A stretch of 64,000 bases of DNA from Deltaproteobacteria bacterium (GTDB lineage: Bacteria; Desulfobacterota; Syntrophia; Syntrophales; UBA2185), in contig JAPLJS010000114.1 in the NCBI GenBank assembly GCA_026388545.1, positions 94,737-158,736 of the forward strand. The letters are read 5' to 3'. The notes beneath the pieces are model-generated. The model was given only the letters and a program-made list of their open reading frames with translations. It was not told the DNA's origin and did no database searches. Position 1 is the stretch's first letter. Every line of letters begins with the position of its first letter. The translations under genes were made by a program, and so were the position numbers. Positions 4,139 to 23,989 of the stretch are shown here, in pieces.

Positions 4139-4710
<572 letters not shown>

Positions 4711-5861: not shown

Positions 5862-5882
5862 TGGAAACCTGTTGCATCGAAT

Positions 5883-5914
5883 ATAAAAACCGTCAGAGGT
5901 TGTGCAAAGGTCTC
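5883..5914 (+). repeat. Solo IS5-family-like terminal repeat (right-end type)
   Basis: ATAAAAACCGTCAGAGGTTGTGCAAAGGTCTC matches 33322..33353 at 31 of 32 nt. It shares the TTGTGCAAAGGTC core with the right end of the intact IS at about 50645. Confidence 0.55.
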
Positions 5915-5922
5915 AGAATGTG

Positions 5923-5966
5923 AATCCACACCTTCTTTAGTAAAAAGGGGGTGTGGATTTTTTTTA
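5923..5966 (+). terminator. Rho-independent terminator-like hairpin
   Basis: AATCCACACC (5923-5932) pairs with GGTGTGGATT (5950-5959) and is followed by a T-run. Confidence 0.6.
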
Positions 5967-6348
5967 AAGCTCTCAAAACATTTTCTAATGCGACTTTGTG
6001 AGCGTTTAAGAGTCAGGCTTAATCCATATTATGAAGCCAAAATAAGATATTTAGAACAAAGGATCAAGTCTTTCCCCGATGGACTAAATAAGTGGGCATT
6101 ATATAAATAATACTAAATATTCGGCAGGTAAATATACAAATTACAGACTTTGTAATTCCGAACGAACATGAAGAATCTTCAAGATCCCTCCTTTCGGTCG
6201 GGACAAGGATTTCTCTTTTCACGCAAAATGACAAAAAAGAGAATTATGGCACAGGCTCTACGCGGGAGTGGCAGGAAGGACGAGTATTTCAGAGGTTTTT
6301 CAATACTTATGTTGACCTAAGGTGGATTTCATTCTGTAAGGAGAAACT

Positions 6349-7047
6349 ATGACATTTAAGATGACTTTGAAGTGGATGGCGTTTTTGGTAGTCGTGCTTA
6401 TGACTGCTCAGGTGTGTGCCGAGGAGCCGCAAGTTCTGAAGACGCAAAAAGACAAGGTGAATTACGGCATCGGAGTCAGTGTAGTGAGAAACTTCAAGCA
6501 GCAGGGATTCGAGATCGACCTCGATGCTGTGGTAAAAGGCATGAAGGACGCACACTCGGGCGTAAAGCTTCTCATGACCGATGCGGAAATCCATAAAACC
6601 ATGGCCTCGTTTCAGAAGGAACTGAGGTTAAAACAGAGGCAGACCAAGATAATAGCGGCGGCTGATAACAAAAAAGAAGGGGACGCCTTTCTGGCTGAGA
6701 ATAAGAAGAAGGTAGGCGTGGTGACCCTACCGAGCGGGCTACAGTATATAGTCCTCAAGGCGGGAGATGGCAAGAAGCCGACAGACGCAGACACGGTAGA
6801 GTGTCACTACCGGGGCACCCTCATCGATGGGACCGAATTCGACAGCTCTGATCGCAGCAAGCAACCCGCAACCTTCACGGTCACAGGGGTCATCCCCGGC
6901 TGGCGGGAAGCGCTGAAGCTCATGCCTATGGGTTCGAAATGGCAGCTCTTCATTCCTCCTCAGCTCGCGTATGGAGAGCGGGGATCTGGCAGTATCGGGC
7001 CGAACGCGACACTCATCTTTGAGCTGGAACTCCTTGCCGTCAAGTGA
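6349..7047 (+). CDS. FKBP-type peptidyl-prolyl cis-trans isomerase (Mip/FkpA-like), secreted
   Basis: Signal peptide, Mip-like N-terminal helix region and an FKBP domain (YRGTLIDGTEFDSS...GVIPGWREAL...IPPQLAYGERG). AGGAG RBS upstream. Confidence 0.9.
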   Translation: MTFKMTLKWMAFLVVVLMTAQVCAEEPQVLKTQKDKVNYGIGVSVVRNFKQQGFEIDLDAVVKGMKDAHSGVKLLMTDAEIHKTMASFQKELRLKQRQTKIIAAADNKKEGDAFLAENKKKVGVVTLPSGLQYIVLKAGDGKKPTDADTVECHYRGTLIDGTEFDSSDRSKQPATFTVTGVIPGWREALKLMPMGSKWQLFIPPQLAYGERGSGSIGPNATLIFELELLAVK

Positions 7048-7190
7048 TGTGAGGTTAGCCGTGCGGCTGTCGGGCGGAATTGCAATTGTAAATTGTTCAT
7101 GCCAAGAAAATGAACGCAAGAGATTCTTCGGTTTTTCAAAAGTCTCAAAATGGGAATAACTTGAGAACGGGAAAAGGCAGGGAGTCAGGG

Positions 7191-7868
7191 ATGTTCGCAA
7201 ATATCATCAAACATATATCGGGGATCACCGTGTTGTTTGGCTTCCTGATCCTCTCTCTCGTGCTGACATCTTCCTCCCTTGCCGATGTGTACAGGTATGT
7301 CGACGAGAATGGGGTCATCCATCTGACCAATGTACTCATGGGCCCCCGGTTCAAGGTCTTGATCAAAGAGAGGCCGGATAATAATTTTAAACAGGGACGT
7401 GATTTAGGGACGTACGATGAACTGATCGCCGGGGCGGCCGGTAAATACGGTGTGGATATCTCCCTGGTGAAAGCTGTCATCAAGGCTGAATCAAATTTCA
7501 ACCATAAAGCAGTTTCGAGAAAAGGCGCCAGAGGACTCATGCAGCTCATGCCTCAGACAGCCATAGCTCTTGGCGTGAGCGACTCCTTCCATCCCGGGGA
7601 TAATATCGACGGTGGTATTCGTTACCTTTCCTCCCTGATCGGTCTCTACAACGGTGACCTGCTGCTGGCGCTTGCTGCCTATAATGCCGGCGAAGGAGCT
7701 GTTGCCAAGTACCGGGGTATTCCGCCTTATGCCGAGACCCGTACCTATGTCCGCTGTGTCCTGGATCATTACAAGCGATACAAAAAAGAGTCAAAGACCA
7801 CGGCTACTGTATTGGTAAAACAGCCTCAATCGGAAGAGAGCCAGACTTATTCTCTTCATTCATTTTGA
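7191..7868 (+). CDS. Lytic transglycosylase (DUF4124-like N-terminus + SLT domain)
   Basis: VYRYVDENGVIHLTN, then the SLT motif AVIKAESNFNHKAVSRKGARGLMQLMP...AYNAG. ATG at 7191 follows GGAG; the track ORF starts at 7110. Confidence 0.85.
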   Translation: MFANIIKHISGITVLFGFLILSLVLTSSSLADVYRYVDENGVIHLTNVLMGPRFKVLIKERPDNNFKQGRDLGTYDELIAGAAGKYGVDISLVKAVIKAESNFNHKAVSRKGARGLMQLMPQTAIALGVSDSFHPGDNIDGGIRYLSSLIGLYNGDLLLALAAYNAGEGAVAKYRGIPPYAETRTYVRCVLDHYKRYKKESKTTATVLVKQPQSEESQTYSLHSF

Positions 7869-7871
7869 TCA

Positions 7872-10142
7872 TCACTTTGCCGACGGCTTGACACCCTCCT
7901 GTTTCTGCTGCTTTTCCTTGATTAGCTCTTCCTTCTTTATCCTACCTTTGCTTGATTCGGACATTTTGTCAACAAGCTCCGAGGATATGTCCTTTGCCTC
8001 TTTCTGGTTTTTAATCACGTGGGGTGTCAGCAGGATAATGATTTCCTGTCTTTTTGTTTCGTCTTCAGTATAACCGAATAGCCACCCGAGGATCGGTATT
8101 TTGGACAGGAGCGGTATACCTGATCTTGATTTTGACGTGTCTTCCCGAATGAGTCCGCCAATAACAATCGTCTGGTTATCCTGTACGACAAGATCCGTTG
8201 TCACATCGGTCTTGTTAAGGAGAATCTGAGATTCACCGGAAAGTGTGATAGTCTCGTAGTTTGAGATTTCCTGATAAAGCTCAAGAGAAACAAGGCCGCC
8301 CGCGTTAATCCGGGGTTTTACCTTCAAAATGATACCGATGTCCCGGTATTGAAAGTTTCGCTGGGGGGAAACACCGGGTGTGCCATAGGTTTCTGAGGTC
8401 ATGAGAGGGACCTGCTGACCGACCTGGATCTTTGCCTCTCTGTTGTCCGAGACGAGTATATGTGGAGCCGCCAATACCTTGGCTTTCGCCTCGGTGGCGA
8501 GGGCTGTGATGAGGGCTCTCACGGCGCCCGCAGCGTCGACGCCGATAAAAGTGAATCCCGTCATAGATAGTTTGTTCGGATCTACATTCAGGGCATTGGG
8601 ATTTAGTATAAACTTAGAGTCAAGATTCAACACATTACCTTTAAAAAGGGCAGAAATGCCGAAGCTGAGGTTGTCCGTGAGCGATACGGAAGCTACCATG
8701 CCCTCGATAACCACCTGCCTCGGAATGACATCGATCTCTTCGATAGTTTTTTTGATGGCGGCATAGTCTTCCGGTGTAGACAGAACTATGACGGTATTCG
8801 TGATTTCATCGGGGATGATTCTCGTGAAATCGGCAACGATGGCTTCTCCGCCGGTCGATATCGTTGAAACCTGTGGCTGTGAAGAAATCGCAGGGAAAGG
8901 AGATGGTGATGATTGAGCGGCTTGAGGCGCCGAGCCTGTTCTGGAAGGGGCGGAGGCCCTTTCCGGCGCAGACGTTTTACTGCCCAGGAATATCTGCTGT
9001 AAAAGCGAGGCGATATCTTTTGCCTTGCTGTTCTGGACTTGATAGACAAATACCTGAGGTTTTCTCTGCTTGAGTTTTTCGTTGTCAAAAATCTCGATAA
9101 GTTTGAGCATACGCTTTACATTGGCATCGGTATCCACGATAATGATCTGATTGCCCTTCGGCACGTCAATGAGGACGGCATTATTCGAAGAAAAGGGTGT
9201 AATAAGTTTGAGGACTTCTGATGACTGGACGTAGGTGATCGGTACCACCTGAAGCAAGGACTTTCCTGTTATCAGGATCTTCTCCGGATCCCGGCCGAAA
9301 CTGACGGGCGAAGGTTCCTTGGAGATGTCACTGATTGGGACAATCCTGTAAAGACCATTGTCCTCAACAATCCCAATGCCGTTGAGCCTCAGGATGACTT
9401 CCATCAAGGGCAGCACATTATCCATGGGAACGGGTGCAACGGCCCTGAAAGTAACTCTTCCTTTCACACGTGGATCAACCACGTAGTTGACCCTCAGCGC
9501 CTCGCCAAAGATAGTCTGGATGATCGTGTACACATCAGCATCATCGAAATTCAAGATGAACTGGCCTCTGCGGGGGACCGGGATAGCCGCGGGTTGCATC
9601 GCAGGAGGAGCAGGTTGCACCACAGGAACCGAAGGTTGCATCGCAGGAAAAGGAGGTTGCCCGGCGGGCGGCTGTCTCATGCCCGGAGGTAACAGTGGAC
9701 TCTGTTGCGGCTGCTGACCTGGTGGCATGGCGGTCTGCGGGGGCTTGCCCACAACGGGTTTGACCGGTTTAATTTGTTTCGGCGGCACTTCATTTTTCAA
9801 TGGCTCCGCAGGCATCTTTGCTGCAGGCTGCGGGAATGTTCCCTGCGGCGTCGAGATAGTTGTTGGCTGGGTCTTTGAAGGTTGTGTATCAGAAGATTTT
9901 GAAGGAATTAATTCCAGCGAAGGGGAAAACGGCTGTTGCCCTGGCTTCACATCGGTCTGATCTGTCTTTTGATCTTGCGATTGCGCCTGCGCCCAACAGC
10001 ATACTTCTGTGCCGGGTATAGGCACGAGTAAGCTTACACTACTTAAGGAAAGAATGAATGCAGTCTGCCAAATCAAGAAGGACTGTCGAGTAAACAAAAT
10101 ACCCCCAAAATTTCTTTCTGTCCAGAGTCTTAAAACCTGCAT
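7872..10142 (-). CDS. gspD: Type II secretion system secretin GspD with long Pro/Gln-rich N-terminal spacer
   Basis: N0/N1-like domains and a C-terminal secretin domain (PHILVSDNREAKIQVGQQVP...IPLLSKIPILGWLF...LLTPHVI). Starts 4 nt after the gspG stop. Confidence 0.9.
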   Translation of the reverse strand: MQVLRLWTERNFGGILFTRQSFLIWQTAFILSLSSVSLLVPIPGTEVCCWAQAQSQDQKTDQTDVKPGQQPFSPSLELIPSKSSDTQPSKTQPTTISTPQGTFPQPAAKMPAEPLKNEVPPKQIKPVKPVVGKPPQTAMPPGQQPQQSPLLPPGMRQPPAGQPPFPAMQPSVPVVQPAPPAMQPAAIPVPRRGQFILNFDDADVYTIIQTIFGEALRVNYVVDPRVKGRVTFRAVAPVPMDNVLPLMEVILRLNGIGIVEDNGLYRIVPISDISKEPSPVSFGRDPEKILITGKSLLQVVPITYVQSSEVLKLITPFSSNNAVLIDVPKGNQIIIVDTDANVKRMLKLIEIFDNEKLKQRKPQVFVYQVQNSKAKDIASLLQQIFLGSKTSAPERASAPSRTGSAPQAAQSSPSPFPAISSQPQVSTISTGGEAIVADFTRIIPDEITNTVIVLSTPEDYAAIKKTIEEIDVIPRQVVIEGMVASVSLTDNLSFGISALFKGNVLNLDSKFILNPNALNVDPNKLSMTGFTFIGVDAAGAVRALITALATEAKAKVLAAPHILVSDNREAKIQVGQQVPLMTSETYGTPGVSPQRNFQYRDIGIILKVKPRINAGGLVSLELYQEISNYETITLSGESQILLNKTDVTTDLVVQDNQTIVIGGLIREDTSKSRSGIPLLSKIPILGWLFGYTEDETKRQEIIILLTPHVIKNQKEAKDISSELVDKMSESSKGRIKKEELIKEKQQKQEGVKPSAK

Positions 10143-10146
10143 TTCA

Positions 10147-10578
10147 TTATTTCCAGCTTACTACGTCCTGGTCCTCTCCCTCGCCACCAAGAGCACCGTC
10201 CCTGCCATAAGAAAAGAGGTCATATTCCCCGTGTGTACCGGGACACTGGTAATTATAGGCTCTTCCCCACGGGTCATTGGGAAGTTCTTTCTTGAGATAA
10301 GGTCCATCCCATTTTTCGACACCGGGATTGACCGTGAGCGCGTTTAACCCCTCCTGTGTTGTAGGATACCTTCCCACATCAAGCCGAAACTGATCCAATG
10401 TCTGACCAAGAAGTTCTATCTGCGCTTTCGTTGCCGACTGCTTGCCTTTGCCGAGTTTCGGAAAAAGGCGGGGTCCAACGAGGGCGGCGATAAGACCGAT
10501 GATCACCATGACGACAAGAATTTCCACAAGCGTGAACCCTTTTTTGTTGGGCTTCCAGTGAATATGGCGCCGGATCAT
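10147..10578 (-). CDS. gspG: Type II secretion major pseudopilin GspG
   Basis: Prepilin motif KG|FTLVEILVV, then the GspG core (QIELLGQTLDQFRLDVGRYPTTQEGLNAL...DPWGRAYNY...LFSYGRDG). ATG at 10578 has an AGGAA RBS. Confidence 0.9.
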   Translation of the reverse strand: MIRRHIHWKPNKKGFTLVEILVVMVIIGLIAALVGPRLFPKLGKGKQSATKAQIELLGQTLDQFRLDVGRYPTTQEGLNALTVNPGVEKWDGPYLKKELPNDPWGRAYNYQCPGTHGEYDLFSYGRDGALGGEGEDQDVVSWK

Positions 10579-10745
10579 AGATATTCCTTGGGTGAATGAA
10601 AATTTCTTTGTCGGGTATTCGATGCAAGTCAAGCAGAGATTCTAATCTACCGCCCTATAAGAATATTTTTTTCTTTTATTTGCAACGAAAAATTTCAATA
10701 TGGATATATTGTATCATATAAATAGCTTATTTGTTTAGTAATATT

Positions 10746-10850
10746 TTACATTTTCCCAGCTTATATTTCCATAGGGAGTAACCTTGATCAACATAGCCAA
10801 ATGTCTTATTTATTCGTCAGGGAATGGATGATAAGTAACAGCGAAGAGAA
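10746..10850. promoter_or_regulatory. Conserved upstream element, copy A (upstream of gspG-gspD)
   Basis: About 100 nt, roughly three-quarters identical by eye to 29242..29345, in the same orientation. Shared blocks: TTACATTT, GCTT, ATAGGGA, CTTGATC, CAAAT, TCTTA, TCAGGGAATGG. Confidence 0.5.
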
Positions 10851-11055
10851 ATGTTGGTTCTATTCCGATCAGAGGGCGCCTGACTAAAAGGCCTTGCGCC
10901 TCTGCAGGCACATGAAGGGCTCACCTCCCCGTACTAGAAATCACGCCTGCCGCTATAAATTAAGGACTTTCGAAGGTATAAATCAGGTTATTCCTGATTG
11001 TGAATCGTTGCATAATTTTGTATTCATGATTACAAGGGCAAGGGAAGGAATAACC

Positions 11056-11295
11056 ATGGAACCTAAAATAGCACAAAAGGGACCTTACTTGATGGAGTTG
11101 AAAGCCGGCAAATATTATTGGTGCAGCTGTGGTCATTCTCAATCGCAGCCATTCTGTAACGGCTTACACGCAAAGCTCAACACAGCCATGACTCCCGTGG
11201 AAACGGTTATCGCTAAAGATACAGTAGTAGCGTGGTGTGGCTGTAAACGGACTGGAGCTCCGCCGTTCTGCGACAGTACGCATAATTATCTATAG
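11056..11295 (+). CDS. CDGSH-type iron-sulfur domain protein
   Basis: Two CDGSH-like motifs: CSCGHSQSQPFCNGLH and CGCKRTGAPPFCDSTH. ATG at 11056; the upstream part of the track ORF looks non-coding. Confidence 0.75.
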   Translation: MEPKIAQKGPYLMELKAGKYYWCSCGHSQSQPFCNGLHAKLNTAMTPVETVIAKDTVVAWCGCKRTGAPPFCDSTHNYL

Positions 11296-11621
11296 AAGAT
11301 CATGGAAGATGATGTCCTTTATGGCAGGCACTGCCATTCGTGCTTCAGATAAAATGGAAAATATCTTCAGTGATTGAGACCTTTCTTAATACTTGCAGAA
11401 CTCCACGACTTCCGGTTCCCCATGAAATACGCAATGTGCGAAAGATTCACTTTCTCTCAGGGCCTTACGCCTGATTGCCATAATCTATAAGGATTTTCAA
11501 AGTCATAAATAAAGATATTCCTGATGGTAAAGCACACCACCATTATGTTTAACTAAACAAGAAAGTTGAGAATGCTGACTTTTGAAGAAACGTACTTTAA
11601 AATGAAAGGGGAAAGTATGGT

Positions 11622-12107
11622 ATGAAAAAATGCATCTTTATTATTATAGTCTTGTTAATTATCTCGATTCTGCCATTACCACTTTATGCTCAAGGGCATA
11701 AGGGGCAAAAATCTATAAGTAAAAAAGATGTAGCATCCGCTTCAGGAAAAGAACAAGCAAAGGCTTATTCTCCAATGCCCGATCCCGGTAAAAAGGTCCC
11801 GATCGGGAGCGGCTATTATTTGATATACAGCTTTGACAAGAAGCCCAAGCTGGGCACATTAATCATGAAGGTCGAGATTTTTACCGATGAGGGCAAAAAA
11901 GACACCTCTTTCGAGGCTAAGGCCGATGCCGGTATGCCTTCCATGAAAGGCGCCCATGAAACAGGAAACCGGACATTTAAACTTTCCAAAAGAGGGGATT
12001 ATCTCCTGCCGATAAGTATTGTCATGCCCGGTGACTGGGAGATAAGGCTCACTATATTAAAGGACGGAAAAGTTATTTTCAGGGGCAGCTGCAACTTCGA
12101 TGTATAG
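11622..12107 (+). CDS. FixH/YtkA-like secreted protein
   Basis: Signal peptide. Pattern ...KPKLGTLIMKVEIF...ADAGMPSMKGAH...LPISIVMPGDWEIRL resembles YtkA/FixH-type domains. Confidence 0.5.
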   Translation: MKKCIFIIIVLLIISILPLPLYAQGHKGQKSISKKDVASASGKEQAKAYSPMPDPGKKVPIGSGYYLIYSFDKKPKLGTLIMKVEIFTDEGKKDTSFEAKADAGMPSMKGAHETGNRTFKLSKRGDYLLPISIVMPGDWEIRLTILKDGKVIFRGSCNFDV

Positions 12108-13101
12108 AACCGTTATCATATGCGTGGCCCTGATATTCATGACCGGTATGGCGCAGGCGGCGAACCAGCTCCTCTATTTCGAAGCGCAGGGAATTGCCGG
12201 TTATTCGTCTGAGATTAAAAAAAAGATCTATTCCTCGATGAACCCGGATGCGGAGATGCAGAAGCCGAGCCTGGGCTTTGATTACTTAAAACGATTTTCC
12301 GGCGAGTCCGGAGATTGGGCTACCTTTGCGCTTCAGGGCCGTCTGGCCCTGACACAGGATCTTGAAAGCAATGAGAATGGGAACGCATATAAGTTAGAGC
12401 CTCAGGTATATAACGCCTATCTGAAAACGAAGACACCCTGGACTTATGTCTGGGTCGGACATAACCGTCCCGCTTTTGGGCTTTCCTCCTATTTCGACAG
12501 CCACGGCCTCATACTGCGGACCCTTGCCATACAGGGTTTCGGTTATGACCGTGACTGGGGAGGCGGGCTCTACAGAGACTTCTCATGGGGGGATGTTTCA
12601 GCCTCCGTCACGACAGGATCAGGGATGCCTGTATATTTCAAAGGGGGCAATTATATGACGGCCGCCAGGGTCTCGTATGGCGTGCAGAGTCAGGATAACT
12701 TCAATTTAGGTTTTTCCCTGGGTTATGGCAGTACGCTTGATACAATGGGGTATACACTGAGGGATCCGGAGCCCCGGGAGATGAGGCTTGCGGGAGCCGA
12801 CCTGACCATCCTCAGGGATAACCTTGAACACCGTTTTGATCTGCTTGCCGGGACTTGGCTCGACAAGGATACATATTCCTTGTTTTACCGTTTCGGCGTG
12901 AACCTGGACCAGGAAGGTCGGCTTAAGATAGAGGCCCAGCCGACATACTGGAAGTTCGGGGAAGAAAATAATTATCAACTGTCACTCTGTTTTTCAAGTC
13001 AGGTGACCTCAAATTTGACGGTTCGTTTAGGTTATACTTACGATCATAACGCTGACGACAACAGGGTACTTTTGCAACTTTATTACTATCGACCGATATG
13101 A
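12100..13101 (+). CDS. Putative outer-membrane beta-barrel protein
   Basis: Signal peptide (MAQA|AN), alternating aromatic/Gly-rich strands and a Tyr-rich C-terminus. Overlaps the upstream gene by 8 nt. Confidence 0.4.
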   Translation: MYRTVIICVALIFMTGMAQAANQLLYFEAQGIAGYSSEIKKKIYSSMNPDAEMQKPSLGFDYLKRFSGESGDWATFALQGRLALTQDLESNENGNAYKLEPQVYNAYLKTKTPWTYVWVGHNRPAFGLSSYFDSHGLILRTLAIQGFGYDRDWGGGLYRDFSWGDVSASVTTGSGMPVYFKGGNYMTAARVSYGVQSQDNFNLGFSLGYGSTLDTMGYTLRDPEPREMRLAGADLTILRDNLEHRFDLLAGTWLDKDTYSLFYRFGVNLDQEGRLKIEAQPTYWKFGEENNYQLSLCFSSQVTSNLTVRLGYTYDHNADDNRVLLQLYYYRPI

Positions 13102-13769
13102 AATCAAGATTACCGGACATTTACAGAATGAGAAAAACAAAGGTTACCCTTTTGATTAGGCACACGATATTAGCAATTTTCCTTGTCCTTGCCGGCTACA
13201 CAGCCCTCTGGGCTGCGGTAGGTTGCGATCTGAATGACCCTGACCGTGATGTGGCAAGGCTCTTCCCGGAATCCACAGGGTATAGGACGGTTTATACCTC
13301 GATTTTGAAAAAGGGCGGAGAAAAGCTCCTGGTGACGGTAGAAACGCGACTTGGGGAGAAATTCCGGGGCATTTTTGAAACCATCGACGTGCCCTATACA
13401 ATCTATGAGATTTTCAATAATAAGAAGAAAATCGGATATATACATGGAGTAAACCAGAAGGGCCAGTTCGGGGGCATCCAGGTATTCGTGGTGCTTGACC
13501 TCGAAGGACGGATAAAAGGTTTTTATATACAGAAAATGACAAGCAAGTATGCCGGGAAATTACGCGATGCGAGATTCGGCAGGCAGTTCATCGGTCTGAC
13601 CCTCAAGGATTTTAACTATTACGATGTTGTTTCAGGAAAGGCATCCGGAAAGGTCGATAGGATAAAGAACCCGGCGCCTGAAGCGGAAGCAGATTTCAGG
13701 GCCGCACTCAGGGCCACGAAAAAGAATCTTATCCTTATGGATGAGTTTGTCTATTCGTCCAAGCCTTAA
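13098..13769 (+). CDS. Membrane-anchored FMN_bind-like (NosR/RnfG-type) domain protein
   Basis: N-terminal TM helix. GYIHGVNQKGQFGGIQVFVVLDLEGRIKGFYIQ and FGRQFIGL resemble FMN_bind domains. The position of the SGAT flavinylation motif reads VSGKASG. ATGA overlap with the upstream gene. Confidence 0.4.
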   Translation: MKSRLPDIYRMRKTKVTLLIRHTILAIFLVLAGYTALWAAVGCDLNDPDRDVARLFPESTGYRTVYTSILKKGGEKLLVTVETRLGEKFRGIFETIDVPYTIYEIFNNKKKIGYIHGVNQKGQFGGIQVFVVLDLEGRIKGFYIQKMTSKYAGKLRDARFGRQFIGLTLKDFNYYDVVSGKASGKVDRIKNPAPEAEADFRAALRATKKNLILMDEFVYSSKP

Positions 13770-13792
13770 TCTTATCCGGGAGGTTCTCAAAA

Positions 13793-14986
13793 ATGATCAC
13801 AAAATTTCAGGTTGCGTATAAAAACCTGCTCAGAAAAAAAATCCGCAGTCTTCTTACCCTGATCGGCATTGCCCTTTCCTCATGGGTGCTTGTAAGCCTG
13901 CTGGGCTTCAATCAGGGCTACGAAGCCTCACTCAATAAAGACATAGACAACATGGGCTTTCAGTTGATGATCATGGCCAAAGGATGCCCGTATGAGGCGG
14001 CCACCATGATGCTGAAGGGAGGAACAGGGCTCCGTTATATGGATGAGTCCATTATGAAGGACATCGTTAAAGAGCCGGAAGTAGATAAGATCACGCCGAT
14101 CCTTATGTCGGCCGTCTTCGATCCGAATAAAGGGGAAAGCGGTGGGATAGCCGGATACTTTGGCATAGAACCAAAGAGCTTTGCCGAAATGAAGCCCTTT
14201 CTCAAATTCAGGCAGGGGGGCTGGTTTGCCGATGAAAATTCCTATGAGACCGTCATGGGGTTCGAGGCGGCCGAGCTTGAGCAGCGAGAGGTAGGCGACA
14301 TGATCCTCATGCCCGAGATGAACGTCGAATTCAAGGTGGTGGGCATACTGGAAAGGACAGGCACACAGGATGATGGGACCATCTTTGTACCCCTCAAGAC
14401 GCTGCAAAAGATATTTAACAGACCCGATGAAATTACCACAATAGGCATCAAATTGAAAAAGGGCGTCGACAGCGGCCCCCTCGAGGAAAAGCTGTATCAG
14501 CTCCCCGATGTGCAGATAGTGAGCCTGGCGCAGGTGAAAGAGACCATCATGAAGCTTATTTCCACAGCCAAGGTAATGGTACTTTCGATCGCCGTCATTG
14601 CTATTTTGATCGCTATGGTCGGCGTCATAAATACGATCCTGACATCGGTATGGGAAAGATTCCAGGAAATCGGCATTCTGAAGACCGTCGGCGCTATGCC
14701 CTGGGACATATTCAAATTGATCTGGATCGAGACCCTGATCCTCTGCACGACGGGAGGCGTCGTTGGTATTATTCTGGCGCTGATACTTGCGCGCGTAACG
14801 GATATAGTGATGCGCAGTCTGCTGCCTTACGCCCCCGGCGGAGGTCTCGTGCTCATAGACCTGAAACTTGTACTGGTCACGTTGGCCGGAATCATTTGTA
14901 TCGGCCTTCTCAGCGGCGTTTATCCCGCCTGGAAGGCCGGAAGGATCAGGCCCTTAGAGGCCATCAGGGGGGAGGCCGGCAGATGA
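13793..14986 (+). CDS. ABC transporter permease, FtsX/MacB/LolE type
   Basis: 397 aa with TM1, a large periplasmic domain and three C-terminal TMs (FtsX-like), ending ...AWKAGRIRPLEAIR. Confidence 0.85.
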   Translation: MITKFQVAYKNLLRKKIRSLLTLIGIALSSWVLVSLLGFNQGYEASLNKDIDNMGFQLMIMAKGCPYEAATMMLKGGTGLRYMDESIMKDIVKEPEVDKITPILMSAVFDPNKGESGGIAGYFGIEPKSFAEMKPFLKFRQGGWFADENSYETVMGFEAAELEQREVGDMILMPEMNVEFKVVGILERTGTQDDGTIFVPLKTLQKIFNRPDEITTIGIKLKKGVDSGPLEEKLYQLPDVQIVSLAQVKETIMKLISTAKVMVLSIAVIAILIAMVGVINTILTSVWERFQEIGILKTVGAMPWDIFKLIWIETLILCTTGGVVGIILALILARVTDIVMRSLLPYAPGGGLVLIDLKLVLVTLAGIICIGLLSGVYPAWKAGRIRPLEAIRGEAGR

Positions 14987-15729
14987 GAGAAAACGGTATA
15001 TCGATCACAGCAACAAACCTGACAAAGGTCTATCCCCGTGGAAATGAAAAAGTCATTTCCGTCAATAATGTTTCATTCGAGATACTCAAAGGGGATTTCG
15101 TATCTATCATCGGTCCATCGGGGTCTGGCAAAACCACACTGATCAATCTTCTGGGCTGCCTCGACAATCCGACGGCCGGAGAACTTTACCTCGGAGGCCG
15201 GTCGATCTTCGGCAACGGGAAACGTCTTTCGGAACGGGAACTGACGAAAATAAGGAGGGAGACATTCGGATATATTTTCCAGAATTTCTATCTCATCCCC
15301 ACCCTGACCGTCATGGAGAACGTCATGCTGCCGCTCACATTCTACCGAAAACCCGGTACGGAGCATGAGGCGATCAAACTATTGAAACTCCTCGGGCTGG
15401 ACCACCGGCTGGACCACCTCCCGGACCAGATCTCGGGTGGTGAGATGCAGCGGGTCGCCATAGCCAGGGCCATGGTGAATATGCCTGAAATCCTTCTCGC
15501 CGATGAGCCTACGGGAAACCTGGATACGAAACGGTCAGAAGAAATTGTGAATGTCCTAAAGGGGCTTAACAGGGATGTGGGATTGACAATCATCATGGTC
15601 ACACACAACCAGAAATGGGCCCGGTATGCAGACCGGATGTTCGAGATGCGAGATGGCCAGATTTATCAGATTGATCGTGAATCAAACAAATATATTGAAA
15701 CAGAGCAACAGCGGGCCTGTAGTGAATAG
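14983..15729 (+). CDS. ABC transporter ATP-binding protein (MacB/LolD type)
   Basis: Walker A GPSGSGKTT, signature LSGGEMQRVAIARA, Walker B ILLADEPTGNLD. The ATG at 14983 overlaps the permease stop (ATGA); the track's longer ORF is an out-of-gene extension. Confidence 0.9.
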   Translation: MRENGISITATNLTKVYPRGNEKVISVNNVSFEILKGDFVSIIGPSGSGKTTLINLLGCLDNPTAGELYLGGRSIFGNGKRLSERELTKIRRETFGYIFQNFYLIPTLTVMENVMLPLTFYRKPGTEHEAIKLLKLLGLDHRLDHLPDQISGGEMQRVAIARAMVNMPEILLADEPTGNLDTKRSEEIVNVLKGLNRDVGLTIIMVTHNQKWARYADRMFEMRDGQIYQIDRESNKYIETEQQRACSE

Positions 15730-15784
15730 GCCATTAAGATACATCGACATATTATTACTCCGGCAACAAAATATCTAAAATTCC

Positions 15785-15848
15785 GTCATTCCGGCGAAAG
15801 CCTGAATCTACTGAAAAGACTGGATGCCGGATCAAGTCCGGCATGACA
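15785..15848. repeat. Bipartite REP-like element (GTCATTCC...GAATC / CTGGAT...CATGACA family)
   Basis: Same family as 31987..32011, 38225..38294, 57556..57604 and 59343..59414. Variants at 4026..4060 and about 6150..6240. Confidence 0.6.
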
Positions 15849-15883
15849 ATCTTTGACATGTTTACTTGCCGGAGGAATAAAAA

Positions 15884-16429
15884 ATGAGGAGGAATACGAT
15901 GAAAAAAATGTATATTCCGAGTATTGTATTGGTTGTCTGTTTCATCTTCGGAGGAATGGCCTATGCCCAGACAAATGATGACGTCAATCTTCATAAAGCA
16001 TGCTGCTATTGCGGTATGGACAGGGGCAGTTTCAATTTTTCCCGCATGGTGATCGAATATAATGATGGAACTGTCAATGGCATATGCAGCATCCATTGTG
16101 CTGCCATAGACCTGGCAAACAACATCGATAAGACGCCGAAATCGATTAAGGTCGGCGATTTTAATGGAAGACAGCTTATCGATGCAGAAAAAGCCTTTTG
16201 GGTTATTGGAGGTAAGAAGCCCGGGGTTATGTCCAAGAGGGGAAAATGGGCCTTTGAAAAAAAGGATGATGCAGAGAACTTCGTGAAGACAAACGAGGGG
16301 AAGCTCGCCTCCTTTGAAGAGGCAATGAAAGCGGCCTATGAAGATATGTACGCAGACACTAAAATGATAAGGGAAAAAAGGAAAGCGAAGCGGATGAAGA
16401 TGATGGAGCACAAACCTGATGCTCGCTGA
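15884..16429 (+). CDS. NosL-family (copper-chaperone-like) lipoprotein/secreted protein, copy 1
   Basis: Signal peptide, CCYCGMDR metal-site-like motif, NosL-like core and a Lys/Met-rich tail. Confidence 0.65.
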   Translation: MRRNTMKKMYIPSIVLVVCFIFGGMAYAQTNDDVNLHKACCYCGMDRGSFNFSRMVIEYNDGTVNGICSIHCAAIDLANNIDKTPKSIKVGDFNGRQLIDAEKAFWVIGGKKPGVMSKRGKWAFEKKDDAENFVKTNEGKLASFEEAMKAAYEDMYADTKMIREKRKAKRMKMMEHKPDAR

Positions 16430-16448
16430 CAGTGGGGCAGGAGGTCAA

Positions 16449-16925
16449 ATGAAAAGAGTCATGTCTTGGGTAATCATTCTTTGTCTTGTTGCCGTTTCAT
16501 TGGCAGAGGGATCTGATACTACAACTCTTCCACCAAAAGATAAATGCCCTGTCTGCGGAATGTTCGTTTCAATGTTTGCCGACTGGAATGCCCGGATCGC
16601 GTTTAAAGACTCAACACGTGCAATATTTGACGGATCCAAGGATATGTTTAAGTATTACTTGGATATAAAAAAATATAATCCGTCAAAAAGTAAAGAAGAA
16701 GTGACTGCAATTATTGTGAAGGATTACTATTCCAAAACGGATATCGACGCTCTGCAGGCATTTTTTGTGATTTGGAGCGATGTGTATGGTCCAATGGGTC
16801 ATGAACCCATACCTTTTGAAAAAGAAGTCGATGCGAAGAAGTTCCTGTGCGAGCATAAAGGTAAAGACATTCTCAGGTTCAAGGATATCAGCACAGATAT
16901 GATTACATCACTCGATAATCCCTGA
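16449..16925 (+). CDS. NosL-family protein, copy 2
   Basis: Signal peptide, CPVCGMFV motif and ...FDGSKDMFKYY...GPMGHEPIPF, typical of the NosL family. ATG at 16449. Confidence 0.7.
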   Translation: MKRVMSWVIILCLVAVSLAEGSDTTTLPPKDKCPVCGMFVSMFADWNARIAFKDSTRAIFDGSKDMFKYYLDIKKYNPSKSKEEVTAIIVKDYYSKTDIDALQAFFVIWSDVYGPMGHEPIPFEKEVDAKKFLCEHKGKDILRFKDISTDMITSLDNP

Positions 16926-16967: not shown

Positions 16968-17621
16968 TCAATCATCGAGTGTAACCAATCCCTCTCGAAT
17001 GGCGTGTTTCGTAATCTCAGCGATGCTATACATATTCAGTTTCTCCATGATATTCCGTCGATGGGTTTCGACGGTCTTGATGCTCAGATATAAATGAGCG
17101 GCGATTTCCTTCGCTGTCATACCCTCCGCAATCAGTTGCAGGACTTCGCGTTCCCTCGGACTCAGTATGGAATGTGTTTTCAGGGAAGAAGTATGCACTT
17201 TGTTGAGATATCCCTTCACAACCACGTCTGCAATGCTTGGGCTCAGATAGGTATGTCCCGTTGTAACCTGACGAATGGCAGTGGCAAGCTCACTAAAGGC
17301 GCAATCCTTCAGCAGGTAGCCCGATGCGCCGGCTTCCAGCATACCGAGTACAAACCGGCGGTCCGAGTGCATGGAGAGACCAATCACCTTTACATTAGAC
17401 AATCCGGCCATGATTTTTCGAGTGGCATCTATCCCATTCATATCCGGCATGCTTACATCCATAACGATGACGTTGGGCGCCAGCTTCTCAGCCAGCTTGA
17501 CTGCTTTTCTGCCGTTTTCCGCTTCGGCAACAACCTCCATCCCTGCTTCTTTTTCTATCAGGGTGCGCAGGCCATCGCGAATAATCTTGTGATCATCGGC
17601 AAGAAGAACTCTGATGGTCAT
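16968..17621 (-). CDS. NarL/LuxR-family response regulator
   Basis: REC domain (VLLADDH...VMDVSMPDMNG) plus a LuxR-type HTH (LSPREREVLQLIAEGMTAKEIA). Overlaps the kinase stop by 4 nt. Confidence 0.9.
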   Translation of the reverse strand: MTIRVLLADDHKIIRDGLRTLIEKEAGMEVVAEAENGRKAVKLAEKLAPNVIVMDVSMPDMNGIDATRKIMAGLSNVKVIGLSMHSDRRFVLGMLEAGASGYLLKDCAFSELATAIRQVTTGHTYLSPSIADVVVKGYLNKVHTSSLKTHSILSPREREVLQLIAEGMTAKEIAAHLYLSIKTVETHRRNIMEKLNMYSIAEITKHAIREGLVTLDD

Positions 17622-20122
17622 TTTTTATACCTCCTTTTTTTCGGGTTTTTCCGTGGCGCCACGAGTGTGACACAGGTACCATATCCCCTGCCGCTTCTGA
17701 TCTCTACGAGGCCACCGATATGTTTAATGCGCTCCTTTATGCTGAGAAGACCAAAACCCCCGGTTTCTTTTGTTGTCTCATCGATAGTGGAGATATCAAA
17801 GCCAATCCCTTTATCTTTAACGGTAATCCGGATGTTTTTGCCTGCCGTCTGAAGAGTGAGATAAGCTGTGCTTGCCCTCGCATGTTTGACAACATTCAGG
17901 AGCAGTTCTCTCACGGCCCTATAGAGGAGCACCTGAACTTCTTCATCGATATCGCGCTTTTTAAGATCATCATTCAGGATAATCTGAAGACCGTAGTCGG
18001 CCTCCATCTGTTCGCTCAGCCAATCGATGGCTTCGGTGAATCCAAGCTCATAGAGAATGGAAGGACTGAGTTCTGTCATCAGCGACCTTGCCTGTTGAAT
18101 GGATTGGTTGACGAGATCCCCGATTTGATCCAGGATGATCGTGAATTCATGCTTTGAAGCCAGCTGCTTTAGGGATTCCAATTTGATTTTGGTCAGGGCC
18201 AGGGTTTGCCCGATATTGTCATGGAGATCAATAGAGATTTTCCGCCGTTCCCGCTCCTCCGTCATAATTAGTTCCGTCGTAAGCAATCCAAGCTGTTCAT
18301 TGATATCTTTGAGATTCTTTTCCGCATCCACCAGCTCGGAAATATCGACCATGGTTCCCTCAATCATTATCAGATCACCCTTATATTTACGGGCACTTGC
18401 ATTTAAGAGGACCCATATGCGTTTTCCATCCTTGTGCTGGAGAGAAAGCTTATAATTTCTGAGGATTTTCTTTTCCAGAAGATCATGGATATAATTTTTA
18501 AACTCGTGACCAGAAGAGAAAATATCTTTTATATCGAGGCCTGACGCATCTTCCCGCCTGTCGTAGCCCAGCATCCTCGCGTGGGCTTCGTTGCAGTCGA
18601 TACGCCGGGCATCTCTGGTGGACGGATTATAAATGGTGCGAAAACTTCCGGCTACGCTGTTTTGAAAGAACTGGTGGTATAGAGTCTCCGATTCATGAAT
18701 GGCCTCTTCCATTTTTATATGGTCTGTCATGTCGCGGGCGGCGGCTAAGATACCCTTGATGTCCCCTGACTCGTTTCGGTACAACGATGCATTGTAAAGC
18801 ACCTCCATCACCCTTCCCGAAACATTCCGGATAGCCAGCGGATAATCGCGGACAAAACCTTTTGAGAAAACCTCCTGGTATCCCTTCCGCGCCATGTCCG
18901 GTTCTGTGAAATAATCAGCAAAATCGCTACCGATCAATCGTTCACGGGACAGACCTGTTGCGTTCTCTGTCGCTTTGTTAACGTCCATGATCTTGCCGTC
19001 AGAACTGATCGTCACAAGGGGGTCGAGGCTAGCCTCGATGAGACTGCGGGCATAGAGGGCATCATCGAGACGCTTCCGTTCGGCCCGCTTGAGCTCCGTT
19101 ATATCCTGGTTGACGACTATGGCGCCTGTAACGTTGCCCTCTTCATTGATCAGAGGCACCGCTGAGTGAAGAATAAATTTGTGGGACCCGTCAAAACACT
19201 CAATTTCGATCTCTTCATTGAGGGAGATCTCCCCTTTCGTTACAGCCCTCGCTGCTCTCCACTCATGTGGTTTTATCAGCTTTCCCGTGTCAATCCACCA
19301 ACACTTATACTCGCCGTAGCGCTCGATATCCACATACCTGGCTCCGCCCCAGATTTCCTGACTTGCACGATTTCCCGAGATGATTTTCCCATTGTGGTCT
19401 ACTATCAAGACACCGACTGGCAGATTTTCCATTATTTTCTGCAGGAGTGTCTCGCTCTTTTTTAATGACCCCTCAATAGATATCCTTTCAGTGGTTTCTT
19501 GTTTGACCTTATCTTTTACCTTATCCAGCTCCCGTGTCCGCTCCTGCACTCGTTGATCCAGTTCTTCGTTTAGCTTGCGGATTTCGTCCTCAGCCCATTT
19601 GCGTTCGGTTATGTCATAATTGATCCCTGTCATGCGCAGGGGCCTGCCCTCTGAATCCCGAATAACCAATCCATGAGCCTTAAGAATCCTTATAGTGCCA
19701 TCCGGCCAAAGGATCCGAAACTCGGTATTGTATTCTTTCTCACCGCGCAATGCCTGCTTTGAAATCTCATGACTAGCGGCACGGTCATCAGGGTGGACTC
19801 CTTTGAGCCAGGCCTCATATGCGCCAGAAAAGTCTTCCTTGCTGATGCCATAGAGCCCATACATCCGATCATCCCAGATCAACTCATTCTTCTGGATGTC
19901 CCAGTCCCAGACTCCAATGTTAGCAGCATCGACAGCCAGGTTAAATCTTTCGTACATCCGGCTCAGCTCTTCGTTCTGCTTTTCGAGTTCAATCCGGTAA
20001 ACCTGCAATTCATGGACATGCTTGTGGATATCTTCATCAGGTTTCTTTTGTGATGTCTTCTTCCGGGAAATAAGCTTTGCTTCTGTCTTTCCGCGGAGTT
20101 CGTTAGATCGTCTTGTTTCCAT
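17618..20122 (-). CDS. Cytoplasmic multi-PAS sensor histidine kinase (HisKA_3/NarX-type)
   Basis: 834 aa with an N-terminal coiled coil, several PAS/PAC repeats, an H-box ISIDLHDNIGQTL and a HATPase_c domain. No TM segment seen. Starts 39 nt after the T2SS gspC-like gene. Confidence 0.85.
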   Translation of the reverse strand: METRRSNELRGKTEAKLISRKKTSQKKPDEDIHKHVHELQVYRIELEKQNEELSRMYERFNLAVDAANIGVWDWDIQKNELIWDDRMYGLYGISKEDFSGAYEAWLKGVHPDDRAASHEISKQALRGEKEYNTEFRILWPDGTIRILKAHGLVIRDSEGRPLRMTGINYDITERKWAEDEIRKLNEELDQRVQERTRELDKVKDKVKQETTERISIEGSLKKSETLLQKIMENLPVGVLIVDHNGKIISGNRASQEIWGGARYVDIERYGEYKCWWIDTGKLIKPHEWRAARAVTKGEISLNEEIEIECFDGSHKFILHSAVPLINEEGNVTGAIVVNQDITELKRAERKRLDDALYARSLIEASLDPLVTISSDGKIMDVNKATENATGLSRERLIGSDFADYFTEPDMARKGYQEVFSKGFVRDYPLAIRNVSGRVMEVLYNASLYRNESGDIKGILAAARDMTDHIKMEEAIHESETLYHQFFQNSVAGSFRTIYNPSTRDARRIDCNEAHARMLGYDRREDASGLDIKDIFSSGHEFKNYIHDLLEKKILRNYKLSLQHKDGKRIWVLLNASARKYKGDLIMIEGTMVDISELVDAEKNLKDINEQLGLLTTELIMTEERERRKISIDLHDNIGQTLALTKIKLESLKQLASKHEFTIILDQIGDLVNQSIQQARSLMTELSPSILYELGFTEAIDWLSEQMEADYGLQIILNDDLKKRDIDEEVQVLLYRAVRELLLNVVKHARASTAYLTLQTAGKNIRITVKDKGIGFDISTIDETTKETGGFGLLSIKERIKHIGGLVEIRSGRGYGTCVTLVAPRKNPKKRRYKK

Positions 20123-20160: not shown

Positions 20161-20910
20161 TTAAGGTTGTTGCATTCGCAGTGCCTCTCTCCGCATTTGT
20201 TGTCCCTCTTTGCTCCTCATTAACAGCGCCTCTCTCCTCGATGTCGGCGTTCTACCGGGAACTACAACCCCCGGTGCAGGAGAAGTTGCCGCCTGTGGAA
20301 GGGATGGCGCCGCCGGAAGAGATGAAGGGACAATAGCAGGCTGAGAGCCACCTGACGGCAATGTGGAAGTTGCCTGCGGAGCGGGGGCTGCGCCGGCTTT
20401 TCTTTTTTCCCCATCGTTCAGCATCACCACGATTTTATCCTCCCCTTTGACCAGGACAATGCGGTTTGCCTCTACCTCTCGGAGGATGTAACCGTTGAGG
20501 TTATCCCCTTTTTTAAGGGCGATTTGCCTTTCCCCTCTCCCCGGTGTTGAGTAAGGCGCTTTCTTGTTTTCGATGAACGCGATACTCATATCGTCCATGA
20601 TCAGAGTTCCGTGAAGGATGACTTCCGGTCTCGGTATTGCTTTTTCGTCTTTCTTCTCCGGCGGAATCTTTCTTTCAGGGTGAAAAAGATTTTGTTCGCT
20701 GATTACGGCATAATCGACAGGAGAATAATTCTGCGGCAGTGCGGGTTTTTCTCCGGACCGCTCAACTGTCTCCTTCGCTGCAGGGAGGGACATCTGAATA
20801 TCCGGATTCAGAAAAGGGATCACGGTAAAATACGCGACTGTTGCAACGGCAACTGTCAGCAGGCCGTTCAGAACATTCATACTTTGAAAAAGATATTTCA
20901 TCCCGGCCAT
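20161..20910 (-). CDS. T2SS-associated inner-membrane protein, GspC/PilP-like
   Basis: One N-terminal TM helix. LHGTLIMDDMSIAFIENKK...GYILREVEANRIVLVKGEDKIVV resembles an HR/PilP-like beta domain. Ala/Pro-rich tail. Assigned by position in the operon. Confidence 0.45.
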   Translation of the reverse strand: MAGMKYLFQSMNVLNGLLTVAVATVAYFTVIPFLNPDIQMSLPAAKETVERSGEKPALPQNYSPVDYAVISEQNLFHPERKIPPEKKDEKAIPRPEVILHGTLIMDDMSIAFIENKKAPYSTPGRGERQIALKKGDNLNGYILREVEANRIVLVKGEDKIVVMLNDGEKRKAGAAPAPQATSTLPSGGSQPAIVPSSLPAAPSLPQAATSPAPGVVVPGRTPTSRREALLMRSKEGQQMRREALRMQQP

Positions 20911-20911
20911 G

Positions 20912-21466
20912 TCATTTCCCTCCTGTCAGTCCCGACACTTTCAGTTTCACTATCAAATCCCTCGGTTCCCTGAAATTCCTTATTCTTGTGTCCAGCTCCC
21001 GAACAACAAGATAAGGGGTTTGTGTCTCAATGGCGTACAGGGTGTCGCCGAGGGCCCTCGTATCGGGAAGCACCGCATCAATCGTGACGGTAATCATTTT
21101 GAACTTTCCGGTATCCTCCGGTTTTTCTGCCCTCTCGCTGGAGATGGTTCCTCCCCTCGCGGTGATCATAACCTTGATGGTATTCTGAAGGGCAGCGGCT
21201 GCGAGGGAGGGGGTCTGCCCCTCGATCATTTTGGAATTTTCAGCCTTTCTGGTCTCCCTCAGAGCGTTCAATTTCTCTTCGATTCGGGGTTTATCGGCAA
21301 TCAGAGTTATATATTTCTCAAGGGTCTTCGACTTGACAGACCTTGTGTCTTCCATGGCGGTCAATTCCGTCTGGGCTCTCAAATAACCATATTGGTATAT
21401 GACAGCACCGAGGAGGATGATCATGAGAGGGATGGCGACAACAAGAATCTTACTCTTTTTTTTCAT
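20912..21466 (-). CDS. GspM/PilO-like T2SS assembly protein
   Basis: Short cytoplasmic N-terminus, one TM helix and a periplasmic coiled-coil/ferredoxin-like region. Starts at MKKKSKILVV. Sits between the L-like and C-like genes. Confidence 0.5.
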   Translation of the reverse strand: MKKKSKILVVAIPLMIILLGAVIYQYGYLRAQTELTAMEDTRSVKSKTLEKYITLIADKPRIEEKLNALRETRKAENSKMIEGQTPSLAAAALQNTIKVMITARGGTISSERAEKPEDTGKFKMITVTIDAVLPDTRALGDTLYAIETQTPYLVVRELDTRIRNFREPRDLIVKLKVSGLTGGK

Positions 21467-23953: not shown

Positions 23954-23989
23954 GGTATTCTTGTTCCGCCTTCTTTCATTTTCATTTCG

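Follow-up and report, generated by a model that had tools for sequence, protein, structure and literature searches.

What is the task of a run of seven co-directional genes that brings together a secreted protein resembling a copper-resistance factor, a predicted outer-membrane barrel, a protein with the fold of a flavin-binding domain, an ATP-binding cassette (ABC) transporter of the MacB type and two NosL-family proteins? This question is raised by a locus in a 64-kb window (the whole stretch of DNA analyzed here, 64,000 nucleotides of contig JAPLJS010000114.1 from a Syntrophales-affiliated Deltaproteobacteria bacterium). Our analysis points to the first five genes as a conserved module that we read as a periplasmic Cu(I) relay, driven by ATP through a MacB-type pump and most likely expelling Cu(I), a reading to which we assign a probability of roughly 0.45. 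The genes, named g1 to g7, are the seven plus-strand open reading frames (ORFs) of the window at 11622-16925:

11622..12107, + strand: g1, secreted CrdA/YtkA-like protein with an immunoglobulin-like (Ig-like) fold, proposed periplasmic Cu(I) chaperone (Foldseek, family profile, Pfam)
12100..13101, + strand: g2, predicted outer-membrane beta-barrel of no defined family, with a signal peptide (sub-threshold Pfam matches)
13098..13769, + strand: g3, predicted membrane- or lipid-anchored periplasmic protein with the RnfG/NqrC (FMN_bind) fold (structure model and Foldseek)
13793..14986, + strand: g4, MacB-type (type VII ABC) permease with a large periplasmic domain (Pfam MacB_PCD and FtsX)
14983..15729, + strand: g5, ABC ATPase of the LolD/MacB/FtsE type (Pfam ABC_tran; start at 14983 read from the sequence)
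15884..16429, + strand: g6, NosL-family protein with CCYCGM, a signal peptide and a charged C-terminal helix, candidate accessory chaperone present in some lineages only (Pfam NosL)
16419..16925, + strand: g7, NosL-family protein with CPVCGM and GPMG, candidate second accessory chaperone (Pfam NosL)

The positions and common direction of the seven genes agree with a preliminary description of the locus, as do the overlaps: g1 and g2 overlap by 8 nt, g2 and g3 share an ATGA, and so do g4 and g5, as read from the sequence; the gap between g3 and g4, given there as 24 nt, measures 23 nt. By its ATGA overlap g5 is predicted to be translationally coupled to g4. A gap of 154 nt separates g5 from g6, and g6 and g7 overlap by 11 nt. 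A search of the whole window against Rfam at the gathering score found a group II intron only, and the stretch upstream of g1 (10600-11700) holds no credible RNA leader or riboswitch; a promoter and terminator scan of the locus yielded nothing informative.

How much of this run is a unit became clear from a scan of one genome per species, which recovered a relative of g3 in 273 species genomes and from which the best 80 loci were fetched with 10-kb flanks. The genes g1-g5 are colinear in 63 of these loci and cut by contig ends in a further 14, leaving three true exceptions, and a NosL gene stands beside them in just 16 of the 80 (in tandem downstream in the Syntrophales-like loci, upstream and/or downstream in the Geobacterales). 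Thus, the five-gene core is the conserved unit and the NosL pair a lineage-specific add-on, and the earlier notion of a seven-gene set conserved as one does not hold. NosL is at the same time the sole family that recurs beside the core, in an arrangement that differs from order to order, the flanking genes being otherwise heterogeneous. Relatives of g3 are spread over seven or more groups of phylum rank, and metagenomes contain over 3,000 sequence clusters. The carriers belong to the Thermodesulfobacteriota, Geobacterales, Nitrospirota, NC10, Aminicenantes, Spirochaetota and Acidobacteriota; among them are Syntrophales, Syntrophorhabdia, Desulfobacterales, cable bacteria and Thermodesulfovibrionia. 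The most conserved part of the module is g3, with 61-93% identity across phyla and 61-84% over the fetched loci; g1 and g2 drop to 40-50%.

A first clue to the substrate comes from g1. Its AlphaFold2 (AF2) model (predicted local distance difference test, pLDDT, 81.5) is an Ig-like beta-sandwich, for which Foldseek returned the Helicobacter pylori protein CrdA as the best match (9ll2/9ll4, E 1e-5, target-normalized template-modeling score 0.71-0.73), followed by FetP/P19/FtrA at E ~1e-4. CrdA is likewise the sole significant match (E 0.0064) of a g1-family profile among PDB sequences, in an alignment that places the g1 segment GMPSMKGAH (M105-P-x-M108...H112) on the Met-rich loop MMPEMPGM of CrdA and MPGDW on MNGTW; invariant in the g1 family are M52, M105-P106, M108, H112, M135-P136 and W139. 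The loop of CrdA is the proposed Cu(I) site that it has in common with CopC and PcoC, a Cu(I)/Ag(I) motif (PMC9182242). Moreover, about half of the listed g1 homologues at 62-73% identity carry a precomputed match to the Pfam family YtkA (PF13115), and YtkA-type proteins are copper chaperones that can stand in for NosL in a nos cluster (PMC12362106, PMC13068155). No Pfam match of g1 to CopC was found. Judging by the modeled fold and the profile alignment, g1 is distantly related to CrdA, a protein of copper resistance in H. pylori, and its Met-rich loop lies in the same place.

The energized part of the module is the pair g4/g5. The permease g4 matches MacB_PCD (78.5 bits, E 1e-21) and FtsX (63.5 bits, E 2e-17), and its closest solved chain is MacB 5nik (E 4e-23), in a full-length alignment that takes in the periplasmic domain; g5 matches ABC_tran (E 3.5e-31) and scores 231 bits against the LolD model and 212 bits against the ATPase part of MacB, both below the equivalog cut-offs. 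The permease and ATPase assignments made earlier were borne out, and by these matches the pair is classed as a MacB-type (type VII) ABC transporter consisting of permease domains and a paired ATPase. In MacB, LolCDE and FtsEX the substrate is not carried across the inner membrane; rather, ATP hydrolysis in the cytoplasm drives movement in the periplasm. The periplasmic domain of g4 bears a signature, KGCPYEAATMM, within which GCP[YM]EAA is invariant and is kept in relatives at just 34% identity.

The third component, g3, had been called FMN_bind-like, which proved true of its fold and not of its Pfam membership: it matches no Pfam family, reaches 16.4 bits against the rnfG TIGRFAM (cut-off 102), and its profile finds no significant match among PDB sequences, the sole link to FMN_bind (PF04205) at the sequence level being a weak and indirect one to a protein with four FMN_bind domains. 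By contrast, its AF2 model (pLDDT 73) retrieved RnfG (7zc6_G, E 1.6e-6, probability 1.0) and then NqrC chains with Foldseek, in a layout of an N-terminal membrane anchor followed by the FMN_bind fold. The segment VSGKASG is present as described, without the Thr required for flavinylation: the flavin-acceptor position is an Ala in the window (SGKA), and across ~130 homologues it is mostly A, with S in ~20%, T rare and G also occurring. As this position varies among A, S, G and T, a covalent flavin is not a feature of the g3 family. Rnf/Nqr subunits are not among the recurrent neighbors, and neither is ApbE in the family listing, in which no dedicated ApbE search was made. What is invariant is the segment [AG]AVGC[DS]L after the N-terminal helix, which fits a lipobox with Asp at +2; since the Cys is kept in a distant Massilia copy (described below) that lacks the lipobox, it might be a ligand instead. 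Some distant g3 relatives (P0293, P0303, P0304 and P0308) are fused to a C-terminal DUF3179 domain, and in one locus (L085, 8001-11839) such a g3-DUF3179 protein has the genes of a MacB-type permease and ATPase for neighbors, together with a DUF4920-like gene. The recurrence of a MacB-type ABC pair beside this fused relative implies that the pairing of g3-like proteins with such transporters is older than the module itself.

The gene g2 always lies between g1 and g3. Searches with g2 and its homologues (n=34) gave only sub-threshold matches to DUF7840, Toluene_X, DUF2490, OmpA_membrane, Porin_4 and OMP_b-brl, and the g2 profile has no significant match among PDB sequences. The outer-membrane barrel proposed earlier thus stays a prediction, one that we retain here; the invariant residues of the family include H121, H135 and M176-P177.

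The two NosL genes with CxxCGM motifs were readily confirmed: g6 and g7 score 44.7 and 103.9 bits against Pfam NosL (PF05573; cut-off 24), and g7 aligns with the solved NosL structures 7og7/7osf (E 5e-6) with its CPVCGM and GPMG in register with their CHLCGM/CHVCGM and GAMG. Hence, both are assigned by sequence to the family of NosL, which is a Cu(I) chaperone; unlike canonical NosL, their N-termini lack a lipobox (as judged by eye) and they stand outside a nos context. Orthologues of g6 adjoin the core in the Syntrophales-like and the Geobacterales loci. In six Geobacterales loci NosL is paired with a TlpA-like thioredoxin, and in three of these a Cys/His-rich protein follows g5. A Geobacterales sub-cluster that adjoins the module (L027, 9867-14197; also L031, L033, L036, L040 and L043) comprises a Cys/His-rich protein of 162 aa, a lipoprotein of 532 aa, a putative barrel of 326 aa with a "CCGGG" N-terminus, a TlpA-like thioredoxin and NosL.

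Other neighbors recur more sparsely. Multicopper oxidases (MCOs) with full copper motifs were found within 10 kb in five of the 80 loci (L007, L011, L015, L025 and L041), which represent at least three lineages; L007 has two of them, the one in L011 is fragmented, and those in L015 and L041 lie directly upstream on the same strand, at 251 nt and 651 nt, respectively. With a chance expectation of ~0.2-0.8 such loci in the 854 kb of flanks, the adjacency is an enrichment that is real but minor, 75 of the 80 loci having no MCO within 10 kb. In two Desulfobacterales-type loci (L066, 7848-8393; L082, 4743-5285), secreted proteins of ~180 aa that are extremely rich in His, Asp, Arg and Tyr are encoded on the strand of g1, which follows after 119-135 nt; by composition these may be metal-binding. 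In the two closest seven-gene relatives (L007, 7911-8318; L012, 7702-8130), g1 is preceded at 66-67 nt by the gene for an HspR/MerR-type regulator whose C-terminal tail has eight Cys; no remnant of this regulator was found in the window. A "CopA-like" ATPase encoded right after g5 in L047 is a P2-type pump (it has a PEGLP motif and no CPC) and was dropped as copper evidence.

The module also has a mobile counterpart. A mobilizable plasmid of Massilia putida from tungsten-mine tailings carries a distant copy made up of an ATPase and of a barrel, a g3-like protein and a permease with 24% (to g2), 29% and 34% identity, respectively. The copy is placed behind a gene for an ArsR/SmtB metalloregulator with Cys pairs and ahead of a DsbD-N-domain gene, and transposase and recombinase genes border it; a DmeF/RcnR cassette lies elsewhere on this plasmid. 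A search of plasmids with g3 returned this copy only.

In all, six independent lines, namely the relation of g1 to CrdA, NosL, the MCOs, the other metal-type neighbors, the g4 motif and the Massilia copy, indicate a thiophilic metal, for which copper is the best candidate. Given that the constant partners of the transporter are only the chaperone-like g1, the anchored g3 and the outer-membrane g2, the simplest model is a relay through the periplasm, with its end point at the outer membrane. In this model, g1 would capture periplasmic Cu(I) through its Met/His site and hand it to the periplasmic domain of g4 with its invariant Cys/Met motif. The g3 protein, with a probably flavin-free FMN_bind fold and an invariant N-terminal Cys, would sit beside g4 as an anchored partner or adaptor. 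Hydrolysis of ATP by g5 in the cytoplasm would then be transmitted as a conformational change to the periplasm, in the manner of MacB-type mechanotransmission, and the metal would be passed to the barrel g2 and out through it. In the window and its closest relatives, the NosL proteins g6 and g7 could act as additional Cu(I) chaperones that supply the relay. As to direction, expulsion is favored because of the resistance-type homologue of g1, the cassette on the plasmid and the precedent of MacB pumps as exporters; the balance tips only slightly toward expulsion or tolerance and away from acquisition or metallation.

Several observations weigh against this reading. Whereas the gene set, its conservation, the family and fold assignments and the statistics of the neighborhoods are results of the analysis, we infer which metal is handled, how the proteins contact one another and which way the metal flows, the metal from homology and neighbors only. 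Neither a MacA-type membrane-fusion protein nor a TolC-type channel occurs in the window or among the recurrent neighbors, which leaves the coupling of a 333-aa barrel to the pump unexplained, and that barrel has no match to CopB/PcoB and belongs to no defined barrel family. The g1 of the window scores 17.5 bits against Pfam YtkA, below the cut-off of 25.9, whereas the annotated homologues, the CrdA fold and profile match and the Met/His site speak for the YtkA-like label given to it earlier. About 60 of the 80 loci lack any copper-related neighbor. The regulators beside the module vary by lineage (HspR/MerR-like, Rrf2, ArsR and Fur), and a comparison of the DNA ahead of g1 in 61 loci gave no inverted repeats or 8-mers in excess of shuffled controls, such as a common operator would leave; as a consequence, regulation offers no evidence on direction. 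Finally, the genes for cysteine synthase (CysK), O-acetylhomoserine-sulfhydrylase-like enzymes and Rrf2 located no more than 5 kb from the module in seven loci of different lineages (L023, L024, L047, L053, L061, L069 and L081) occur there above chance and point to sulfur chemistry, for which the copper reading has no explanation.

The first rival reverses the flow of copper. In the window, an MCO of 1134 aa (33422-36826) with all four canonical copper motifs is encoded 16.5 kb downstream of the module (17 kb according to the preliminary description); it has a Sec-type signal following an internal Met and, by virtue of this signal, must get its copper outside the cytoplasm. Its C-terminal end bears three repeats of ~38 aa, "GRLLWVHTSGQANLWKLDATDNLVxQKLYGPFAGWTP". 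As had been reported, the module also lies between the two halves of a type II secretion system (T2SS): GspD/GspG at 7872-10632 and GspE, F, pseudopilins, K, L and M at 20161-29115. This location is peculiar to the lineage of the window. Contrary to the association with T2SS suggested by the single locus, only L025, on a Syntrophorhabdaceae chromosome, has close GspE/F matches nearby (72% and 67% identity) among the 80 loci; L045 and L057 have distant GspE-like matches only (44-49% identity), and T2SS was rejected as a general functional partner. L025 repeats the neighborhood of module, MCO and GspE/F, with the module reduced to a remnant of g3, g5 and NosL. Directly upstream of this remnant (4710-8860) lies a second, divergent set coding for two NosL proteins, a 102-aa protein, an FtsX-type permease, an ABC ATPase and a 335-aa protein, from which it follows that NosL has paired with FtsX-type ABC transporters more than once.

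These neighborhoods lend themselves to a reading in which scarce Cu(I) would enter through g2 and the ATP-driven machinery would load MCOs exported by Sec or T2SS and other periplasmic cuproenzymes, as an analog of NosL-NosDFY assembled from unrelated parts. It draws on NosL and YtkA-type proteins being known copper-delivery chaperones, on the MCOs beside the module in five loci and the window, above all the two directly upstream of it, on the Sec-type signal of the window MCO, on the remnant in L025 that is again beside an MCO and GspE/F, and on the TlpA-like thioredoxins with NosL in the Geobacterales, which recall the ScoI/TlpA assembly of CuA. However, no client enzyme is conserved with the core, and the large majority of loci have no MCO within 10 kb; the sole constant partner is instead an outer-membrane barrel, CrdA, the closest characterized relative of g1, is a resistance determinant, and the Massilia copy resembles a resistance cassette. 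Nor does adjacency to an MCO prove a chaperone-client relation, because MCOs such as CueO and PcoA also serve detoxification. We hold acquisition to be a serious but unlikely alternative. The copper theme of the earlier proposal holds, but a dedicated copper-insertion system for the exported oxidase describes a possible role in some lineages and not the defining function of the module, the link to MCOs being weakly supported. The homology to CrdA, the layout of chaperone, outer-membrane protein and pump, and the ArsR-controlled plasmid copy favor expulsion or tolerance at least as much as insertion.

A second rival leaves copper aside and supposes another thiophilic substrate: a soft metal or metalloid (Ag, Zn, Cd, Hg or Ni), a reactive sulfur or selenium species or a metal-thiolate complex, with the copper-type neighbors being secondary. 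The invariant periplasmic Cys residues of g3 and g4 would suit such a substrate, as would the thiol-reductant partners encoded nearby (DsbD-N in Massilia, TlpA-like in the Geobacterales), the Cys pairs of the Massilia regulator, the above-mentioned sulfur-metabolism genes in seven loci, the want of a copper-specific neighbor in most loci and the fusion of distant g3 relatives to DUF3179, a family that includes selenoproteins (PMC9312934). Against it stands the Met-rich site of g1 (MPxM..H / MPG-W), which together with the homology to CrdA is typical of Cu(I)/Ag(I) and not of Zn, Cd or sulfur species. Moreover, the metal-specific neighbors that do recur are NosL and MCO, and mer, czc, znt or ars genes are not recurrent beside the module. 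On balance, this alternative too strikes us as doubtful.

Two further readings fare worse. A generic MacB-type role without metals, be it the export of peptides, lipids or antibiotics or a Lol-like extraction of the lipoprotein g3 or of NosL to the outer membrane through g2, could appeal to the MacB, LolCDE and LolD models as the best-scoring ones for g4/g5, to the lipobox-like AVGC of g3 with its Asp at +2 and to Pfam detecting no HMA, CopC or CusF domain in the core; but all these scores fall far under the Lol/MacB equivalog cut-offs, the Massilia g3-like protein has the Cys and not the lipobox, and the Met/His site of g1, its homology to CrdA and the recurrent NosL, MCO and metalloregulator neighbors would go unexplained, so that we consider it improbable. 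Weakest of all, and in our estimation very improbable, is a relative of the P19/FetMP-FetABCDEF system for redox-assisted iron uptake by a copper-dependent Ig-fold protein, an FMN_bind/thioredoxin protein and an FtsX-type ABC transporter, which could cite the match of the g1 model to FetP/P19/FtrA, the FtsX-type ABC genes (FetBCD) and thioredoxins, or in Gram-positives an FMN-binding gene, of P19 clusters (PMC10783030, PMC8238504) and a Fur-family gene upstream of the module in L001/L010, but for which no FTR1 permease, DUF2318 or P19-family (PF10634) gene occurs in the window or among the recurrent neighbors, and g1, with one invariant His and several Met, departs from the His-rich site of P19 and matches CrdA better.

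The preferred Cu(I) relay can be placed among the known envelope systems. The periplasmic Cu(I)/Ag(I) efflux systems CrdAB-CzcBA of H. pylori and CusCFBA of Escherichia coli likewise encode a secreted Met-rich chaperone, an outer-membrane protein and an energized inner-membrane pump together. However, their pump is a resistance-nodulation-division (RND) antiporter and that of the module an ATP-driven MacB-type ABC transporter; the module also has a small barrel of no known family in place of a membrane-fusion protein and a TolC/CusC-type channel, and its FMN_bind-fold protein g3 has no counterpart in them. With the NosL-NosDFY system of nitrous oxide reductase the window shares a NosL beside an ABC ATPase and permease that does mechanical work in the periplasm and not inner-membrane transport, with an FMN_bind domain, as in NosR, nearby. 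Yet the permease is of the FtsX/MacB class, NosL is no fixed part of the set (16 of 80 loci), the flavinylation Thr is missing from g3, and NosD, NosY, NosZ and a full NosR are absent, for which reason the module is not a nos cluster. Indeed, scanning the window ORFs of at least 120 aa found no nosZ, nosD, nosY or nosR and no membrane-fusion protein or TolC-type channel, in keeping with the absences listed in the preliminary description.

The Pco/Cop systems (the MCO PcoA, the barrel PcoB, the chaperone PcoC/CopC and PcoD) resemble the module in a barrel of ~300 aa, a CopC-like Ig-fold protein rich in Met, an inner-membrane component and, in some loci, an adjacent MCO. This likeness is at the level of the fold only, through CrdA: an ABC transporter takes the place of CopD, the MCO is absent from most loci, and g1-g4 have no Pfam matches to CopB, CopC or CopD, by which Pco/Cop is set aside. 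Among MacAB-TolC, LolCDE and FtsEX, g4 aligns over its full length with MacB and g5 is LolD/MacB-like; the module is nevertheless not a MacAB-TolC, since MacA and TolC are absent, and it has its own GCP[YM]EAA motif and its own partners g1-g3. FetMP-FetABCDEF (P19), lastly, also joins a periplasmic metal protein of Ig fold to an FtsX-type ABC transporter and to an accessory that binds FMN or is a thioredoxin; the module differs in possessing a barrel and in a g1 closer to CrdA than to P19, to which its likeness is one of fold only, and in the want of FTR1, P19 and DUF2318/YHS, which sets it apart from that system. Full-text literature searches on the architecture (NosL/FtsX/YtkA, NosL/Geobacter and the NosL family) found no description of it, in agreement with the earlier statement that none was known. 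The module is best regarded as a MacB-type, probably Cu(I)-handling, five-gene variant of known envelope metal systems. A bolder interpretation, which we put forward tentatively and consider unlikely as a whole, is a new class of metal-trafficking machine, in which a MacB-type ABC transporter would drive a thiolate/Met Cu(I) relay with a flavin-less FMN_bind-fold adaptor and a dedicated barrel, and which would supply exported MCOs and other cuproenzymes with copper in anoxic, sulfidic habitats, as NosDFY-NosL does with unrelated parts.

The remainder of the window bears on the history of the region. Between the T2SS halves, g1-g7 are accompanied by a gene for a CDGSH protein (10894-11295) and a PAS-kinase/NarL-type regulator pair (16968-20122); both were rejected as parts of the module, as neither is kept beside it in relatives. 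The rest consists of glycan and phosphonate biosynthesis genes and mobile elements. A stretch of low G+C content at 38351-45659 codes for a phosphoenolpyruvate (PEP)-mutase/cytidylyltransferase fusion, a thiamine pyrophosphate (TPP)-dependent decarboxylase and an Fe-alcohol dehydrogenase, followed by a flippase, a glycerophosphotransferase and a family 2 glycosyltransferase (GT2), and looks like a cluster for a phosphonate-decorated surface glycan. The group II intron (51937-53707; RF02003 domains D1-D4, 109.5 bits), with a reverse transcriptase (RT)/maturase ORF at 52424-53707, lies inside the glycan-biosynthesis region. Mobile or defense-type genes at 30728-33297, 49349-50494 and 62522-63778 (an AbiEii toxin, two DUF4143/AAA_14 ATPases and a DDE transposase), found between T2SS and the MCO and beyond, suggest past rearrangement of this part of the genome.

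Where oxygen is lacking, copper occurs chiefly as Cu(I), its most toxic species, which in the presence of sulfide is almost unavailable; how strict and facultative anaerobes deal with Cu(I) is poorly understood. The module is widespread in such organisms as Geobacter relatives, syntrophs, cable bacteria and NC10, is strongly conserved and is undescribed in the literature searched, and its proposed role is directly testable. If the Cu(I) relay proposed here is correct, periplasmic copper systems would gain a third type of energy coupling in the MacB-type ABC transporter, the other two being RND pumps and NosDFY. The relay would also give a function to the g3 family, for which there is no Pfam model, and a non-flavin role to the FMN_bind fold. 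More generally, the module provides a testable handle on how the extracellular MCOs of metal-reducers obtain or tolerate copper.

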